This document shows, piece by piece, positions 1-5,221 of a stretch of DNA of 5,221 nt. The translations under genes and the position numbers were made by a program. Location of the stretch: IMG/VR virus record IMGVR_UViG_2724679236_000011, positions 1 through 5,221 of that record; one strand, 5' to 3'. Origin of the DNA: a virus (lineage: Duplodnaviria > Heunggongvirae > Uroviricota > Caudoviricetes). Every line of letters begins with the position of its first letter. Position 1 is the stretch's first letter. The notes below the pieces were generated by a model. The model was not told where the DNA came from and searched no databases. It saw only the letters and a list, made by a program, of their open reading frames with translations.

Positions 1-84
1 CAGAATCAGCCGGATGAAATTCCCGTTCTGGAATGGCAGGGAGTACGTGTCGTGACAACCGAAACTCTTGCTAGAGGGTATGGG
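1..84. repeat. Terminal inverted repeat, left copy (perfect reverse complement of 5138-5221)
   Basis: Positions 1-84 equal the reverse complement of 5138-5221 exactly; identity breaks at position 85 / 5137. Confidence 0.95.
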
Positions 85-780
85 GTCGATGAAGCCAATA
101 TTCGCAACAATTTGTCTCGCAACCTTGACCGCTTTGAAGAAGGTAAGCATTACTTTCTTCTAACTGGTTTAAAATTAAGAGAATTTAAGAACAGAGTAAC
201 CGGAAGTTACTCTGTTGGTAAGAACGCCAGAAGCCTTACACTCTGGACAGAGCGCGGCGCTGCACGCATGTCTAAGATCGTGGACACAAATGAAGCATGG
301 GCATTCTTTGAAAAACTGGAAGACAGCTACTTCCGGCAAAAAGAACAGCAACCGGTTGCAATCCCCCAAACATTACCAGAAGCCCTACGCCTGGCTGCCG
401 AACTGGCTGAACAAAAGCAGCTTCTGGAACAGAAAGCCCACCAGCTAAATCAGCAGCTGGTGGCCGCCGCTCCTAAGGTCGATTTTGCCGACCGGGTATC
501 AGTAGCTAAAGGGATCCTGATTGGGAATTTTGCAAAGGTTGTTGGACTTAAGCAAAATGCGCTGTTTGCCTGGTTACGGGAGAACGGCATCCTGATAGCG
601 TCCGGTGGACGTAAAAATGTGCCGTTCCAGCAGTACATCAACGCGGGGTATTTCACGGTGAAAGAAGTGGAAGATGGCTACCAGATACGGTTGACGCCTC
701 AATTAACGGGTAAAGGCCAGCAGTGGTTGACGCGTAAACTGCTCGATGCTGGCTTGTTAAAACCGGTGGCGGCTGAATAA
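1..780 (+). CDS. Antirepressor-like protein, 5'-truncated by window edge (ORF continues in frame from position 1; track start GTG at 52). N-terminal ORF6N/Rha-like region, coiled linker, C-terminal KilAC/Ant-type domain
   Basis: Long ORF open to window start; stop TAA 778-780. C-terminal motifs (FADRVSVAKGILIGNFAKVVGLKQNALFAWLRENGILIASGGRKNVPFQQYINAGYF) resemble phage antirepressor C-terminal domains as I recall them. A paralog lies inverted at 4451-5221. Confidence 0.7.
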   Translation, partial: QNQPDEIPVLEWQGVRVVTTETLARGYGVDEANIRNNLSRNLDRFEEGKHYFLLTGLKLREFKNRVTGSYSVGKNARSLTLWTERGAARMSKIVDTNEAWAFFEKLEDSYFRQKEQQPVAIPQTLPEALRLAAELAEQKQLLEQKAHQLNQQLVAAAPKVDFADRVSVAKGILIGNFAKVVGLKQNALFAWLRENGILIASGGRKNVPFQQYINAGYFTVKEVEDGYQIRLTPQLTGKGQQWLTRKLLDAGLLKPVAAE

Positions 781-787
781 TGGAAGA

Positions 788-818
788 ATGCCCGGTTGAT
801 GCCGGGCATAATTTATTG
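788..818. terminator. Bidirectional intrinsic terminator between convergent ant-like gene and c1
   Basis: Perfect 8-bp stem ATGCCCGG (788-795) / CCGGGCAT (802-809) with 6-nt loop, followed by AATTTATT on + strand and a T-rich stretch on the - strand side. Sits between stop codons at 778-780 (+) and 813-815 (-). Confidence 0.6.
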
Positions 819-1664
819 CGCGCTTTCGGGGTTGTCGTTTACTGGCTGCCCCTTCTTGGTTTTACGGCTGCGCGTAACTGATGCGGCTGACTTAACCTTT
901 TTCTCTTCGCGAGTGATGGCAATTTGTTTTTTTACATTTTCAATATCTGCCAGGCGATATATTTTTGCTTGCGGCCAGCGGTCGCAGATGATCGGTTCTA
1001 TGGAGTCATAAAGGCTAAATTTTGCTTTTTCGAATTCACCGTTGATGATAATTCCATCACGGAGAGTTTCATCGCAGATAAACACGCCACACAGTGGCAC
1101 ATGGTAACTAACTGATTTACCATCATTGTAGTTAGGGCTACTGGAAATGTAGTGGACGCGCAGCATTGTTTCGCTAAAGCCGTGTACGCGCATACGGAAT
1201 TTTTCATCCTCCGGGTACTGCTTCATTAGCTCTTTTGTTGCTTCCAGGTTCTCTATGTATTTCGCACTGTGCTCATTGATCCCCGCGCTTTTTTGGATGC
1301 GAATGTCCTTATCAATCAGATGAATAATGCGGCCAGCGGTCATGTTGACGCTGTTCACAGCCTCTGTCTGATAAGTTGTAACCTTACGCACACCGCGAAG
1401 GATGTTAGGCACTGGATATAAAATAGTCTTTGGGATATTGAGGTCTGGGTACTGTTCCAGTTCCCGCGCCATTAAAGTCCATTTATCAATTTCAGCCTGA
1501 ATGCTGTCAGTTTCTTTGAACGGTAGAACGACAACCGGGCGTACAGGACGACCGTCGCTGGCTGTATCAACGTGTTGGGCGCGTGCAACAGCTTTTTTTA
1601 GAAAGAGATCCCTGAAGCTGACGAACTCCTGGTACAGTTGTTCGCCGTAGACATAATTTATCAT
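813..1664 (-). CDS. c1: P1-type C1 repressor of lysis (283 aa)
   Basis: 283-aa ORF with strong SD (GGAGGAGG, reverse complement of 1668-1675) upstream of ATG. Length and N-terminus (MINYVYGEQLYQEF...) match my recollection of P1 C1. Sits directly downstream of a 69-aa coi-like ORF and near multiple C1-operator motifs, next to loxP/cre. Confidence 0.85.
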   Translation of the reverse strand: MINYVYGEQLYQEFVSFRDLFLKKAVARAQHVDTASDGRPVRPVVVLPFKETDSIQAEIDKWTLMARELEQYPDLNIPKTILYPVPNILRGVRKVTTYQTEAVNSVNMTAGRIIHLIDKDIRIQKSAGINEHSAKYIENLEATKELMKQYPEDEKFRMRVHGFSETMLRVHYISSSPNYNDGKSVSYHVPLCGVFICDETLRDGIIINGEFEKAKFSLYDSIEPIICDRWPQAKIYRLADIENVKKQIAITREEKKVKSAASVTRSRKTKKGQPVNDNPESAQ

Positions 1665-1728
1665 TGATCCTCCTCCAGAATTGACATGGTCAATAACGCC
1701 CGGCTGAGAAAACCGGTCATTACTGACC

Positions 1729-1774
1729 TATATTATAGAGGGATCAAACAAAAATAATAGATTTATTAGTGCAT
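1729..1774 (-). promoter_or_regulatory. c1-proximal promoter/operator region: -10 TATAAT on - strand (complement of 1733-1738) and a degenerate C1-operator-like site (complement of ~1758-1774)
   Basis: Minus-strand reading gives ...ATGCACTAATAAATCTA...TATAAT...; the operator-like site resembles ATTGCTCTAATAAATTT and overlaps the -35 position. A GATC lies in the spacer (1742-1745). Confidence 0.4.
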
Positions 1775-1984
1775 TTATTGTGAGTCCAACTGGTTAGTTG
1801 CCATGAGATATTCGATTGTGTCAGTGAGGTCATCCAGGTCGTCTTGGGTGATGCGGTACTCCTGATTGGATATCTTTGAGTAGTGTTCAGCAATGGCGCG
1901 GGCAGCGTCGGTTTCGGCAGGGTCTACAGATAAAGCGTTAGAGCAATGTCTAACGTCGTCGATGGTTGGTTGAATGAAAGCCAT
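1775..1984 (-). CDS. coi: Coi, C1 inactivator (69 aa)
   Basis: 69-aa acidic ORF immediately upstream of and co-oriented with c1, with a GAGG SD 8 nt before the ATG. Size and position match P1 coi in the immC operon. Confidence 0.75.
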   Translation of the reverse strand: MAFIQPTIDDVRHCSNALSVDPAETDAARAIAEHYSKISNQEYRITQDDLDDLTDTIEYLMATNQLDSQ

Positions 1985-2222
1985 AATTATGCCTCACTGT
2001 ATTGACAACACAGAGCCTGAAGCTCTGACCTACTGTTTCACCCATGATCCATGCTGGGGTAATCTAACAACATTGCGCTGTGTGTAAGATGAGCAATGCA
2101 TAGCTGTAATGCCGTTGTATAAGGTTTCCCTGTTTGCTCATTTCCTTCTGAGCCGCTCTACAACGCTGAAGACACATTAAATAGTGAATCCAAAGTCGTA
2201 TTACGTAACGACGGCAAAACTA

Positions 2223-2245
2223 TAATTTATTAGAGCAATTGTCAA
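2223..2245 (-). promoter_or_regulatory. C1 operator (minus orientation, ATTGCTCTAATAAATTA) abutting a consensus -35 TTGACA; promoter directed toward coi-c1
   Basis: Reverse complement of 2223-2239 is ATTGCTCTAATAAATTA (16/17 to the P1 C1 operator consensus as I recall it). Reverse complement of 2240-2245 is TTGACA; a -10-like TATAGT/TAGTTT lies 15-17 bp downstream on the - strand. The operator overlaps the promoter spacer, as expected for autorepression. Confidence 0.65.
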
Positions 2246-2305
2246 ACAACTATGAAAAACAATCCAGTTTTTAGCTGGTGGAGTGGGATTTTTCTCTCTA
2301 AATTT

Positions 2306-2322
2306 ATTGCTCTAATAATTAT
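2306..2322 (+). promoter_or_regulatory. C1 operator (plus orientation), ATTGCTCTAATAATTAT
   Basis: 13 consecutive matches to the operator consensus core. Inverted relative to the 2223-2239 operator, about 67 bp away, 44 bp upstream of loxP. Confidence 0.6.
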
Positions 2323-2365
2323 TGATTTTTGTGCACAGCTGGACGTAAACTCCTCTTCGGACCTG

Positions 2366-2399
2366 ATAACTTCGTATAGCATACATTATACGAAGTTAT
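2366..2399 (+). other. loxP: loxP recombination site (13-bp inverted arms ATAACTTCGTATA / TATACGAAGTTAT, 8-bp spacer GCATACAT)
   Basis: Exact 34-bp canonical loxP sequence read directly in the window. cre start lies 452 bp downstream, matching the P1 arrangement. Confidence 0.97.
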
Positions 2400-2588
2400 C
2401 TTAAGGGTTATTGAACATGATCAATTTACCTGTAAATCCATACAGTTCAATACCTTATTAGATTAAATAGTGAACACTTGATCATTTGATCAAGGTTGCG
2501 CTACGTAAAATCTGCGAAAAGTTGGCAGAGTTAGTGCTCCAGATTTCGCGTAGCGCGCTTAGCACCACCAATCAATCAGAGGTGAAAA
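2400..2588 (+). promoter_or_regulatory. cre upstream regulatory region with clustered GATC (Dam) sites and promoter-like elements
   Basis: GATC at 2419-2422, 2480-2483 and 2488-2491. The latter two sit in the near-palindrome TTGATCATTTGATCAA (2478-2493), which contains -35-like TTGATC hexamers, with TTGAAC at 2411-2416. Multiple cre promoters with Dam sensitivity are described for P1; exact promoter hexamers are not resolved here. Confidence 0.5.
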
Positions 2589-2810
2589 ATGGGATATTCA
2601 GCTGCTAAAGTGTCCACTCATCTTGAGCTTGAGAAAAACCGTGGTTACTGGCGGGCAAAATGCTTTGAGCGTGATAGTTACCAACTGTCATTATCTCGCG
2701 GTGAAGAGAAAATAGAACGCACACGCGGTCGCTGGCGTTTCTATGACGAGAACCATAACCAGGTAAAGGCAGAGCCGATCCTGTACACTTTACTTAAAAC
2801 CATTATCTGA
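2589..2810 (+). CDS. Hypothetical small basic protein (73 aa), immediately upstream of and probably co-transcribed with cre
   Basis: ATG preceded by strong SD AGAGGTGA (2578-2585) at 5-nt spacing. Stop TGA 2808-2810 lies 7 nt before the cre ATG (2818). No recognisable domain by eye. Confidence 0.5.
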   Translation: MGYSAAKVSTHLELEKNRGYWRAKCFERDSYQLSLSRGEEKIERTRGRWRFYDENHNQVKAEPILYTLLKTII

Positions 2811-2817
2811 GTGTTAA

Positions 2818-3849
2818 ATGTCCAATTTACTGACCGTTCACCAAAATTTGCCTGCATTGCCGGTCGATGCAACGAGTGATGAGGTTCGCAAGAACCTGAT
2901 GGATATGTTCAGGGATCGCCAGGCGTTTTCTGAGCATACCTGGAAAATGCTTCTGTCCGTTTGCCGGTCGTGGGCGGCATGGTGCAAGTTGAATAACCGG
3001 AAATGGTTTCCCGCAGAACCTGAAGATGTTCGCGATTATCTTCTATATCTTCAGGCGCGCGGTCTGGCAGTAAAAACTATCCAGCAACATTTGGGCCAGC
3101 TAAACATGCTGCATCGTCGGTCCGGGCTGCCACGACCAAGTGACAGCAATGCTGTTTCACTGGTCATGCGGCGGATCCGAAAAGAAAACGTTGATGCCGG
3201 TGAACGTGCAAAACAGGCATTGGCGTTCGAACGCACTGATTTCGACCAGGTTCGTTCACTCATGGAAAATAGCGATCGCTGCCAGGATATACGTAATCTG
3301 GCATTTCTGGGGATTGCTTATAACACCCTGTTACGTATAGCCGAAATTTCCAGGATCAGGGTTAAAGATATCTCACGTACTGACGGTGGGAGAATGTTAA
3401 TCCATATTGGCAGAACGAAAACGCTGGTTAGCACCGCTGGTGTAGAGAAGGCACTTAGCCTGGGGGTAACTAAACTGGTTGAGCGATGGATTTCTGTCTC
3501 TGGTGTGGCTGATGATCCGAATAACTACTTGTTTTGCCGGGTCAGAAAAAATGGTGTTGCCTCGCCATCATCCACCAGCCAGCTATCAACTCGCGCCCTG
3601 GAAGGGATTTTTGAAGCAACTCACCGATTGATTTACGGAGCTAAGGATGACTCTGGTCAGAGATACCTGGCCTGGTCTGGACACAGTGCCCGTGTCGGAG
3701 CCGCGCGAGATATGGCCCGCGCCGGAGTTTCAATACCGGAGATCATGCAAGCTGGTGGCTGGACCAACGTAAATATTGTCATGAACTATATCCGTAACCT
3801 GGATAGTGAAACAGGGGCAATGGTGCGCCTGCTGGAGGATGGCGATTAG
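2818..3849 (+). CDS. cre: Cre tyrosine site-specific recombinase (343 aa)
   Basis: Sequence essentially matches P1 Cre from memory (MSNLLTVHQNLPALPVDATSDEVRKNLMDMFRDRQAF...MVRLLEDGD). Catalytic-motif context is present (GHSARVG, GGWTN, MNYIRN with the tyrosine nucleophile). Adjacent to loxP. Confidence 0.97.
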   Translation: MSNLLTVHQNLPALPVDATSDEVRKNLMDMFRDRQAFSEHTWKMLLSVCRSWAAWCKLNNRKWFPAEPEDVRDYLLYLQARGLAVKTIQQHLGQLNMLHRRSGLPRPSDSNAVSLVMRRIRKENVDAGERAKQALAFERTDFDQVRSLMENSDRCQDIRNLAFLGIAYNTLLRIAEISRIRVKDISRTDGGRMLIHIGRTKTLVSTAGVEKALSLGVTKLVERWISVSGVADDPNNYLFCRVRKNGVASPSSTSQLSTRALEGIFEATHRLIYGAKDDSGQRYLAWSGHSARVGAARDMARAGVSIPEIMQAGGWTNVNIVMNYIRNLDSETGAMVRLLEDGD

Positions 3850-3866
3850 CCATTAACACGTAAATT

Positions 3867-3883
3867 ATTGCTCTAATTATTTG
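3867..3883 (+). promoter_or_regulatory. C1 operator-like site (ATTGCTCTAATTATTTG) upstream of the 103-aa ORF
   Basis: 12/17 match to the operator consensus with an intact ATTGCTCTAAT core. Located 17 bp after the cre stop and 17 bp before the next ATG. Confidence 0.55.
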
Positions 3884-3899
3884 GTATTTATGGTGACAT

Positions 3900-4211
3900 A
3901 TGAGAAAGGATTTCAACATCGACGGAAAATATGTAGTGCTGTCTGTAAGCACTAATATTCAGTCGCCAGCCGTCATTGTCACTGTAAAGCTGAGCGATAG
4001 AATGCCTGATATTGACTCAATATCCGTTGCGTTCCCTGTCAAAAGTATGCGTAGTGCTGAACATTTCGTGATGAATGCCACCGAGGAAGAAGCACGGCGC
4101 GGTTTTGCTAAAGTGATGTCTGAGTTTGGCGAATTCCTGGGGCACGTTAACAAAGCTCTCTCAATCAGTTCATCAAGGTCCAAAGCGTTAACAGCATCCA
4201 TGATGAAATAA
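3900..4211 (+). CDS. Hypothetical protein (103 aa), cre-downstream, likely C1-regulated
   Basis: ATG at 3900 with GGTGA SD 5 nt upstream and an operator-like site just upstream; stop TAA 4209-4211. It occupies the position of the cre-adjacent small gene in P1-like genomes, but I cannot confirm identity from memory. Confidence 0.55.
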   Translation: MRKDFNIDGKYVVLSVSTNIQSPAVIVTVKLSDRMPDIDSISVAFPVKSMRSAEHFVMNATEEEARRGFAKVMSEFGEFLGHVNKALSISSSRSKALTASMMK

Positions 4212-4235
4212 AAAAGCCTGGCAAGGAGCCAGGCT
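4203..4235 (-). terminator. Intrinsic terminator oriented for minus-strand transcripts
   Basis: Stem AGCCTGGC (4215-4222) / GCCAGGCT (4228-4235) with 5-nt loop. On the - strand it is followed by TTTTTTATTT (complement of 4203-4214). On the + strand there is no T-tract after the stem. Confidence 0.55.
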
Positions 4236-4341
4236 GCACAAAATAGCGAGTTTGTATCCCGCATCCAATCAATCGGAAGGGAGTATAGCACATAGGTACT
4301 GAAGTGAAAAAATGTGAATTGCGATAAATAAATCGCATGCT

Positions 4342-4365
4342 ATTGCTCTAATTAATTGCTACAAT
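4342..4365 (+). promoter_or_regulatory. C1 operator-like site (ATTGCTCTAATTAATTG) overlapping a -10-like TACAAT (4360-4365)
   Basis: Intact ATTGCTCTAAT core at 4342-4352, with TACAAT 2 bp beyond the operator. No credible ORF follows before the terminator at 4425-4448. Confidence 0.5.
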
Positions 4366-4424
4366 CAAGCCGTGGCGCTAGTCAACTACGAAGACATGGC
4401 CATTACCTGCTTCTTGAAATCATT

Positions 4425-4448
4425 GGCGGCCTAAAGGCCGCCTTTTTT
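4425..4448 (+). terminator. Rho-independent terminator (GGCGGCC-TAAA-GGCCGCC + TTTTTT)
   Basis: 7-bp GC stem (4425-4431 / 4436-4442), 4-nt loop, T6 run 4443-4448. Lies immediately 3' of the minus-strand ant-like gene stop (4451-4453), so it may act in both directions. Confidence 0.75.
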
Positions 4449-4450
4449 AA

Positions 4451-5221
4451 TCACTCAGCCGCTACAGGCTTTAATAAACTTGCATCGAGCAGTTTACGCG
4501 TCAACCACTGCTGGCCTTTCCCCGTTAGCTGGGGCGTCAACCGTATCTGGTAGCCATCTTCATCATCCAGCACCACTTCTTTCACCGTGAAATACCCGGC
4601 GTTGATGTATTGCTGGAACGGTACATTTTTACGTCCACCGGACGCTATCAGGATACCGTTCTCCCGTAACCAGGCAAACAGCGCGTTTTGCTTAAGTCCA
4701 ACAACCTTTGCAAAATTCCCAATCAGGATCCCCTTGGCCACTGATATCCGGTCGGCAAAATCGACTTTAGGGGCTGCGGCCACCAGCTGTTGTTCCAGCT
4801 GCATTTTCTGTTCAGCCAGTTCGGCAGCCAGGCGCAGGGCTTCTGGAAGCGTCTGGGGGATTGCAACCGGTTGCTGTTCTTTTTGTCGGAAGTAGCTGTC
4901 TTCCAGTTTTTCAAAGAATGCCCATGCCTGATCGGTTTCGAGCATTTTAGCGTGGCGGGCTGCGCCGCGTTCCGTCCAGAGAGTGAGGTGCTTTGCTCGC
5001 GGTGCGACTAAGTTACTTTGAGTAACCTTGTCCTTCAATTCTTTTAATTTTGAACCAGTTAGTAGAAAGTAATGTTTACCTTCCTCAAAGCGATCAGCAT
5101 TACGCGTATAGTTAACTTTGATGTTATTAGTTTCGGTCCCATACCCTCTAGCAAGAGTTTCGGTTGTCACGACACGTACTCCCTGCCATTCCAGAACGGG
5201 AATTTCATCCGGCTGATTCTG
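4451..5221 (-). CDS. Antirepressor-like protein paralog, 5'-truncated by window edge (ORF open to position 5221; track start GTG at 5170)
   Basis: Paralog of the 1-780 gene. Protein is identical over the first 11 residues, divergent over roughly residues 12-80, and near-identical thereafter apart from two in-frame indels and two substitutions. Confidence 0.7.
   Translation of the reverse strand, partial: QNQPDEIPVLEWQGVRVVTTETLARGYGTETNNIKVNYTRNADRFEEGKHYFLLTGSKLKELKDKVTQSNLVAPRAKHLTLWTERGAARHAKMLETDQAWAFFEKLEDSYFRQKEQQPVAIPQTLPEALRLAAELAEQKMQLEQQLVAAAPKVDFADRISVAKGILIGNFAKVVGLKQNALFAWLRENGILIASGGRKNVPFQQYINAGYFTVKEVVLDDEDGYQIRLTPQLTGKGQQWLTRKLLDASLLKPVAAE
5138..5221. repeat. Terminal inverted repeat, right copy
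   Basis: Reverse complement of 1-84, read directly. Confidence 0.95.

Follow-up and report, generated by a model that had tools for sequence, protein, structure and literature searches.

Extra immI-type antirepressor operons in an inverted arrangement around the immC-loxP-cre module of a P1-like phage-plasmid

Main finding

Our analysis concerns a 5,221-nt stretch of viral DNA (positions 1 to 5,221 of IMG/VR record IMGVR_UViG_2724679236_000011; hereafter the window), which is the immC-loxP-cre-c8 region of a P1-like (IncY-type) phage-plasmid. The window begins and ends within an inverted repeat, and this repeat consists of the 3′ parts of two extra immI-type operons, both of which are transcribed toward the central module. 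In all sequenced plasmids examined, the segment between the two repeat arms has a single orientation; the arrangement of genes is thus fixed, rather than a switch. Taken as a whole, the observations are probably best explained by additional immI-type operons that stand in a fixed inverted arrangement around immC and stack heteroimmunity in the style of P1 and P7. A first-pass annotation of the same DNA had proposed an invertible cassette. The mirrored repeat around Cre-loxP reflects paralogous genes and, most likely, a contig boundary rather than a new switch. The cassettes are further members of the P1 immI family, with new c4 specificities, an ORF6N-containing Ant and a multi-copy arrangement that comes as only a modest surprise.

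Two immI-type operons flank the immC module

The closest match to the window is a closed Escherichia albertii plasmid, pEA4_97 (NZ_CP117679.1), which matches 100% of its length at 99.9% identity, with 3 mismatches. According to the annotation of pEA4_97, the gene order around the match is pacA-pacB, icd and ant, then c1/coi/cra/cre/c8, and then an inverted ant and icd. Each of the flanking cassettes of this plasmid is a complete immI-type operon. It has a C1 operator with a promoter, a leader that carries target sites, the gene for a c4 antisense RNA, and icd and ant, which overlap by 4 nt in the annotation coordinates. The c4 genes of both cassettes lie outside the window and were located in matching plasmids. 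Rfam family RF01695 (C4) was detected upstream of both icd genes in pEA4_97 and in other plasmids, with scores of 63.6-76.7 bits against a gathering score of 45. In pEA4_97, Rfam places the left leader with isrK and the right leader with c4-a1b1. The left operator (TTGCTCTAATAAATT) is directly 3′ of the pacB stop codon, and the right operator (ATTGCTCTAATAAATTT) is upstream of the right c4.

A third, canonical immI is retained in pEA4_97 (icd-ant-kilA-repL, record positions 10886-13974) with a C4 of its own. It forms a direct repeat with the left cassette and an inverted repeat with the right one. The right cassette is itself a chimera, being like the canonical immI up to the first icd codons and like the left cassette thereafter. 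In several of the plasmids, which are numbered here with an L (pEA4_97 is L001), a 39-amino-acid coding sequence named 'ash family protein' overlies the C4 RNA match (pEA4_97 locus 11324-11443; L003 7324-7443; L018 2625-2744). Over the Rfam C4 match at 11320-11407, this is probably a spurious protein call on an RNA gene.

Insertion junctions were read directly by comparing plasmids that carry the cassettes with plasmids that lack them. The left cassette, of about 1.7 kb, takes the place of a 24-nt spacer between the pacB and c1 stop codons, and the inverted right cassette takes the place of the ref open reading frame (ORF) exactly; in the P1 and P7 references, pacB adjoins c1 and ref follows c8. 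Homology to P1 stops at window position 4448, just after a hairpin and T run, and the stop codon of the right ant (ant-R) occupies 4451-4453. In plasmids that have ref, this terminator-like hairpin directly precedes the ATG of the gene. The former C1-controlled ref promoter survives and is now directed antisense into the 3′ end of ant-R. The junction between the backbone and the outer end of the right cassette is at ATGCACTAATAAATAT, a sequence similar to a C1 operator (L003 ~14150-14250; L006 ~12195-12215). The canonical P1 immI is itself flanked by two operators, Oc4 and OrepL, and it is a matter of speculation that short operator homology might have aided cassette movement.

The flanking genes had been described as inward-facing antirepressor paralogs, and this description holds, both copies having ORF6N and ANT/KilAC domains and similarity to P1 Ant1. 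The full-length proteins of pEA4_97 are 366 (left) and 363 (right) amino acids long and share 88% identity. The left Ant is 56% identical to P1 Ant1 (E = 7e-126), with identity far above this average over the N-terminal ~85 and C-terminal ~150 residues. It keeps an N-terminus like that of Ant1 and an ANT/KilAC C-terminus, between which lies an ORF6N domain not present in P1 Ant1. An internal AAGGAGG-ATG is also retained at the position of the ant2 start. The GTG 'starts' at window positions 52 and 5170 are a product of truncation, since the full ant genes in pEA4_97 begin 321 nt beyond each end.

The part order of P1 immI (Oc4, c4, a1/b1, a2/b2, icd, ant1/ant2) is thus found again in the cassettes, with target sites on either side of c4 and b2 on the icd ribosome-binding site. 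In contrast to P1 immI, however, the cassettes flank immC instead of lying next to kilA-repL, three operons are present per plasmid, the c4 loops are unlike those of P1, and the left leader matches Rfam isrK and not c4-a1b1. Salmonella Gifsy-1 reportedly has an isrK-type leader RNA upstream of an antirepressor gene, in the order isrK-orf45-anrP. The left cassette likewise has an isrK-type leader, which reaches the Rfam isrK gathering score; here, in contrast, the isrK-like stretch holds upstream target sites for the adjacent c4 RNA and lies in a P1 backbone.

c4 loops and their targets change together

The heteroimmunity of P1 and P7 is known to reside in differences between the c4 loops and targets of the two phages. 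From an alignment of the cassette leaders to annotated P1 immI, the c4 loops and their targets were read directly (Table 1). Eight loop combinations were present among 16 cassettes (P1 and P7 included), and every loop change had its counterpart in the upstream as well as the downstream targets. The downstream b site overlaps the Shine-Dalgarno sequence of icd. Left heads are always of the isrK type and right heads always of the P1/P7 type, and single genomes contain two specificity classes. Duplex folding was performed for six of the combinations, leaving out P7 and the right type of L018 and L021. For each c4, the best predicted energy was obtained with the cognate leader downstream of c4, and the upstream a1/b1 sites mostly agree with this cognate preference.

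Table 1. Target sites of the c4 RNAs in P1, P7 and the plasmid cassettes
Cassette	a target	b target
P1	TTGACAG	GTTAGTG
P7	TTAGCAG	GATTGTG
pEA4_97, canonical and right	TTAGCAG	CTTACG
L002, L003, L019, L020, right	TTAGCAG	GTACATG
L018, L021, right	TTGACAG	ACGAATG
pEA4_97, left	TTGAGAC	GCAAAAGG
L003, L018, left	TTGGAAC	GCAAAAGG
L002, L019, L020, L021, left	TTGGCCT upstream, TTGGTCT downstream (G-U wobble)	GTCTAAGG

Similar to P1 and P7, the cassettes differ from one another in the two recognition loops, and each target pair has changed to match. They depart from the P1/P7 case in that several specificities occur in one genome and in that at least six loop combinations exist beyond those of P1 and P7.

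The arrangement recurs in natural plasmids

We searched the 72,556 plasmid records of PLSDB, scoring a query as present at a coverage of at least 80%. The native pacB-immI-c1 junction was found in 238 of 810 matching records, or about 29% of the P1-like plasmids matched, and cre-c8 followed by an inverted immI was found in 56 plasmids. Both cassettes occur in 43 plasmids, as counted with a query built to reach 80% coverage only if both are present. The hosts of these 43 are E. albertii (from birds and humans in the USA, Poland and China), E. coli, E. fergusonii and Shigella. The check proposed with the first-pass annotation, namely whether the module sits between ant paralogs elsewhere, thus has a positive answer. 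Its description of the context as non-canonical is correct to the extent that the context differs from P1 and P7, but is too strong for an arrangement that recurs in four such host groups. Antirepressor operons of diversified c4 specificity occur in twos or threes in many natural P1-like plasmids, a situation not seen in the reference phages and touched on only briefly in the literature searched.

Venturini et al. (2019; PMC6906374) described an insertion of ant with two short ORFs in the pacB-c1 interval of pTZ20_1P and RCS47, as well as icd-ant1/2 homologues in RD-1, the P1 res-mod region, of pSvP1. This was the only relevant report in the literature we searched on multiple immI loci or extra antirepressors in P1-like elements. 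It gives no account of the two insertions as an inverted pair around immC, or of c4 genes and specificities, and we found no description of the inverted pair or of the c4 genes of the inserted cassettes elsewhere in that literature.

Predicted role of the stacked cassettes

By analogy with P1, we infer that each cassette works like immI. The c4 RNA would pair with sites around the icd ribosome-binding site, keeping icd and ant off in the lysogen, and Ant would be expected to inactivate C1 once ant escapes this silencing. The loop and target sequences suggest a stacking of immunity specificities like those of P1 and P7. A prophage that carries more than one c4 type is predicted to keep ant silent in incoming relatives of several immI types, and an invader with several cassettes is predicted to escape residents that hold fewer c4 types. 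If the specificities prove orthogonal, they would help to explain displacement versus coexistence among P1-like plasmids, elements that disseminate genes for resistance and virulence in E. coli, E. albertii and Salmonella.

Several points weigh against the reading of fixed, stacked immunity operons. The right c4 of pEA4_97 has the same loops as the canonical c4, which leaves two specificities in three operons. An insertion sequence (IS) with an rve-type transposase, which is missing from the PLSDB gene table, lies at ~10060-11190 of the pEA4_97 locus, just to the left of the window, between the left C1 operator/promoter and the leader-c4-icd-ant unit, and it may disable the left cassette or uncouple it from C1 control in the pEA4_97 lineage. 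Duplex energies are a crude model of pairing, the 43 two-cassette plasmids are not independent lineages, and consensus assemblies would hide rare flips or a minority flipped subpopulation.

The repeated specificity of the right c4 and the IS that cuts the left cassette off from its promoter would also suit the idea that the extra cassettes are redundant, decaying duplicates without a function of their own. We consider this unlikely. In none of the seven two-cassette plasmids examined is icd or ant disrupted, and the left cassette persists in the sizeable share of P1-like plasmids given above. Further, the c4 loops and both sets of targets change together, and selection on pairing is therefore needed. 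The likelier reading, that of stacked immI-type operons, could be carried further. Operons with different c4 'keys' may act as a combinatorial weapon against incompatible relatives, broadening the immunity of the prophage and breaking that of residents with fewer keys. The arms would then shuffle ant segments and c4 heads between positions, and derepressed cassettes would transcribe antisense into c1 and into c8/cre, reinforcing the lytic switch. This fuller scenario is offered tentatively, and we lean against it in its complete form.

Exchange between the ant arms

Window positions 1-84 are the perfect reverse complement of 5138-5221, with the first mismatch at position 85; the earlier statement that the window ends at mirrored positions inside an 84-bp perfect inverted repeat is thus accurate. 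Further inward, the arms are 83% (126-211), 84% (234-431), 93% (442-670) and 79% (657-814) complementary to their partners, and two in-frame indels separate the left arm from the right. A near-identical 3′ block of ~480 bp had also been proposed. The paralogy that it implied is real, but near-identity over that length was overstated, the best block being 229 nt at 93%.

An alignment of 14 arms from seven plasmids is a patchwork. One allele of the ORF6N segment is on the left in pEA4_97, L003, L018 and L019 and on the right in L002; another belongs to the left arm of L002 and to the right arms of L003, L019 and L020. This shows exchange between the left and right ant positions, and we infer that the similarity of the arms is that of paralogues exchanging patches by recombination. 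The swap between L002 and L019/L003 looks reciprocal (alignment columns 600-900), yet the backbones are not isogenic. We rejected a double inversion as the proven source of the swap, as the backbones are not closely related (81% identity in pacB) and the pattern is partly non-reciprocal. Patch-wise conversion within or between plasmids suffices to produce the allele pattern, and inversion is not proven by it.

The arms might instead serve mainly as homology handles by which immC-loxP-cre is swapped as a unit between related phage-plasmids. In keeping with this, among the longest contigs matched, the exact Cre protein of the window occurs beside both cassettes, beside the left one alone or beside neither, and its orientation with respect to pacB does not vary; the region is also mosaic, with module identities to other plasmids of 94-97.5% that do not track arm identity. 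Nucleotide identity of the module across these contexts did not, however, separate exchange from ordinary mosaicism. The ant arms are unnecessary for such swaps, given that the conserved P1 flanks (pacB and mat) offer equal homology, and in most plasmids the module is accompanied by at most one cassette. We mapped no recombination breakpoints to the pair of arms around a transferred module. A role of the arms mainly as handles for module exchange therefore seems improbable to us.

The central segment is found in one orientation

Inversion of the central segment was addressed with a synthetic flipped junction, in which the left pacB, c4, icd and 5′ ant were joined to the 3′ part of ant-R and then to c8, cre and loxP in reverse, and which was used as a single query. 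At 80% coverage, it was found in none of the 72,556 PLSDB records (best coverage 66%) and in none of 5,426 complete E. coli genomes. A native junction of equal length served as the positive control and was recovered in 238 records. Among the 43 two-arm plasmids, only the native orientation was found. The P1 order of pacB, c1 (-) and cre (+) was likewise present in all seven two-cassette loci inspected by annotation. With free flipping, about half of the 43 assemblies would be expected in the other orientation.

Within the window, we found no second lox site and no invertase gene. A single loxP leaves Cre without a partner site, and we rejected Cre-mediated inversion on this ground. There is the further possibility that c1-loxP-cre is inverted with appreciable frequency by RecA-dependent crossover between the ant arms and that the two states differ in their properties. 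The arms are long; in pEA4_97 they measure ~1.3 kb with icd, including a 96-bp perfect tract and ~510 nt at ~96% identity beyond the window. Two successive flips with different crossover points could also leave an ORF6N-segment allele on opposite sides in different plasmids, but the plasmids with swapped alleles are not otherwise close and patch exchange between plasmids explains the swap equally well. Moreover, a flip would leave both junctions convergent, which would imply little functional difference between the states and no obvious phenotype for a switch. Together with the missing flipped isomer, these considerations make RecA-driven switching very unlikely, and the claim of an invertible cassette is not borne out.

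Programmed invertible segments such as the P1 C-segment with Cin, the Mu G segment with Gin, Hin and the shufflons share with our window a segment between inverted repeats, the first of them in a P1-type genome. In those systems the repeats are short recombinase sites, whereas the arms here are kilobase-long coding paralogues; the window holds no dedicated invertase, and a single orientation is observed.

The window ends lie inside the repeat

In pEA4_97, perfect identity between the arms runs 12 nt past both window ends and is followed by one mismatch and then by 98 matches. Each end of the window is 84 nt outside the first differing base and is not a natural border of the repeat. Since identity continues past the ends, the window stops at arbitrary mirrored positions. 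Most likely, its ends are those of a contig or a de Bruijn unitig (overlap 84) that stopped inside the repeat. An exact 63-mer covering two variants specific to the window had no match in collections of genome, viral and metagenome contigs. The suggestion of an assembly-graph node made in the first-pass annotation would fit these ends well, as they are exact reverse complements of a fixed 84 nt and the repeat continues in closed references.

The same annotation allowed for the repeat itself being an assembly artefact (a collapsed or chimeric repeat, or a fold-back) that is missing from the real molecule. Mirror-image ends would indeed fit a graph node, but dozens of plasmid records, deposited as complete by different laboratories, contain the full window and both of its arms, the arms run outward into unlike DNA in closed long-read plasmids (towards pacB at one end and towards mat or cargo genes at the other), and the assembly-related appearance is confined to the position of the window ends, so that an artefactual repeat is scarcely credible. 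The repeat is also a predictable break point in short-read assemblies of such plasmids.

The central module and other features

Over window positions 799-4448, identity to P1, P7 and their relatives is 93-97%. The centre of the window contains c1, coi, C1 operators, a single 34-bp loxP, cra, cre and c8 in P1 order (Table 2). Five C1-operator-like sites are present in the window, against 0.05 expected by chance.

Table 2. Features of the window
Feature	Position	Strand	Basis or remark
Left arm of the perfect 84-bp inverted repeat	1-84		Start of the ant ORF6N segment
Left ant, 3′ two thirds (codons ~108-366)	1-780	+	ORF entering at the window start; last gene of the immI operon between pacB and c1
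Hairpin following the left ant stop, weak terminator-like	788-809	+	Part of the inserted cassette; not in cassette-free plasmids
c1, primary P1-type repressor (immC)	813-1664	-	ORF, phage-record matches, pEA4_97 annotation; Pfam PF27008 on the same gene
C1 operator-like site	1759-1775
coi, C1 inactivator	1775-1984	-	ORF; named coi or C1 repressor inactivator in phage records
C1 operator-like site, first of a pair upstream of coi/c1	2223-2239	-
C1 operator-like site, second of the pair	2306-2322	+
loxP	2366-2399		Exact canonical 34 bp; sole lox site of the window
cra, Cre-associated gene	2589-2810	+	ORF, phage-record matches
cre, tyrosine recombinase	2818-3849	+	ORF, phage-record matches, PF00589
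C1 operator-like site	3867-3883
c8, putative lysogeny establishment	3900-4211	+	ORF, phage-record and plasmid matches
ref promoter remnant	4342-4448	+	Operator-like site 4342-4358, -10 TACAAT ~4359-4364; hairpin and T run 4425-4448
Right ant, 3′ two thirds	4451-5221	-	ORF from the right edge; last gene of the second operon, replacing ref
Right arm of the perfect 84-bp inverted repeat	5138-5221

All three differences between the window and pEA4_97 (positions 3879, 4334 and 4363) fall in or beside C1 operator and promoter regions. Position 3879 is inside the operator that precedes c8, 4334 completes the palindrome GCGAT-N6-ATCGC, and 4363 changes TACGAT to TACAAT in the -10 element of the former ref promoter.

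Several public records name cra as 'creatininase' and cre as 'GST-loxP-cre recombinase fusion protein', and these look like propagated mis-annotations. A perfect 34-bp loxP match was also seen in Lactococcus phage Q33 (JX564242.1, 17548-17581) under a gene annotated as 'portal protein'; this may be an engineered or marked genome.

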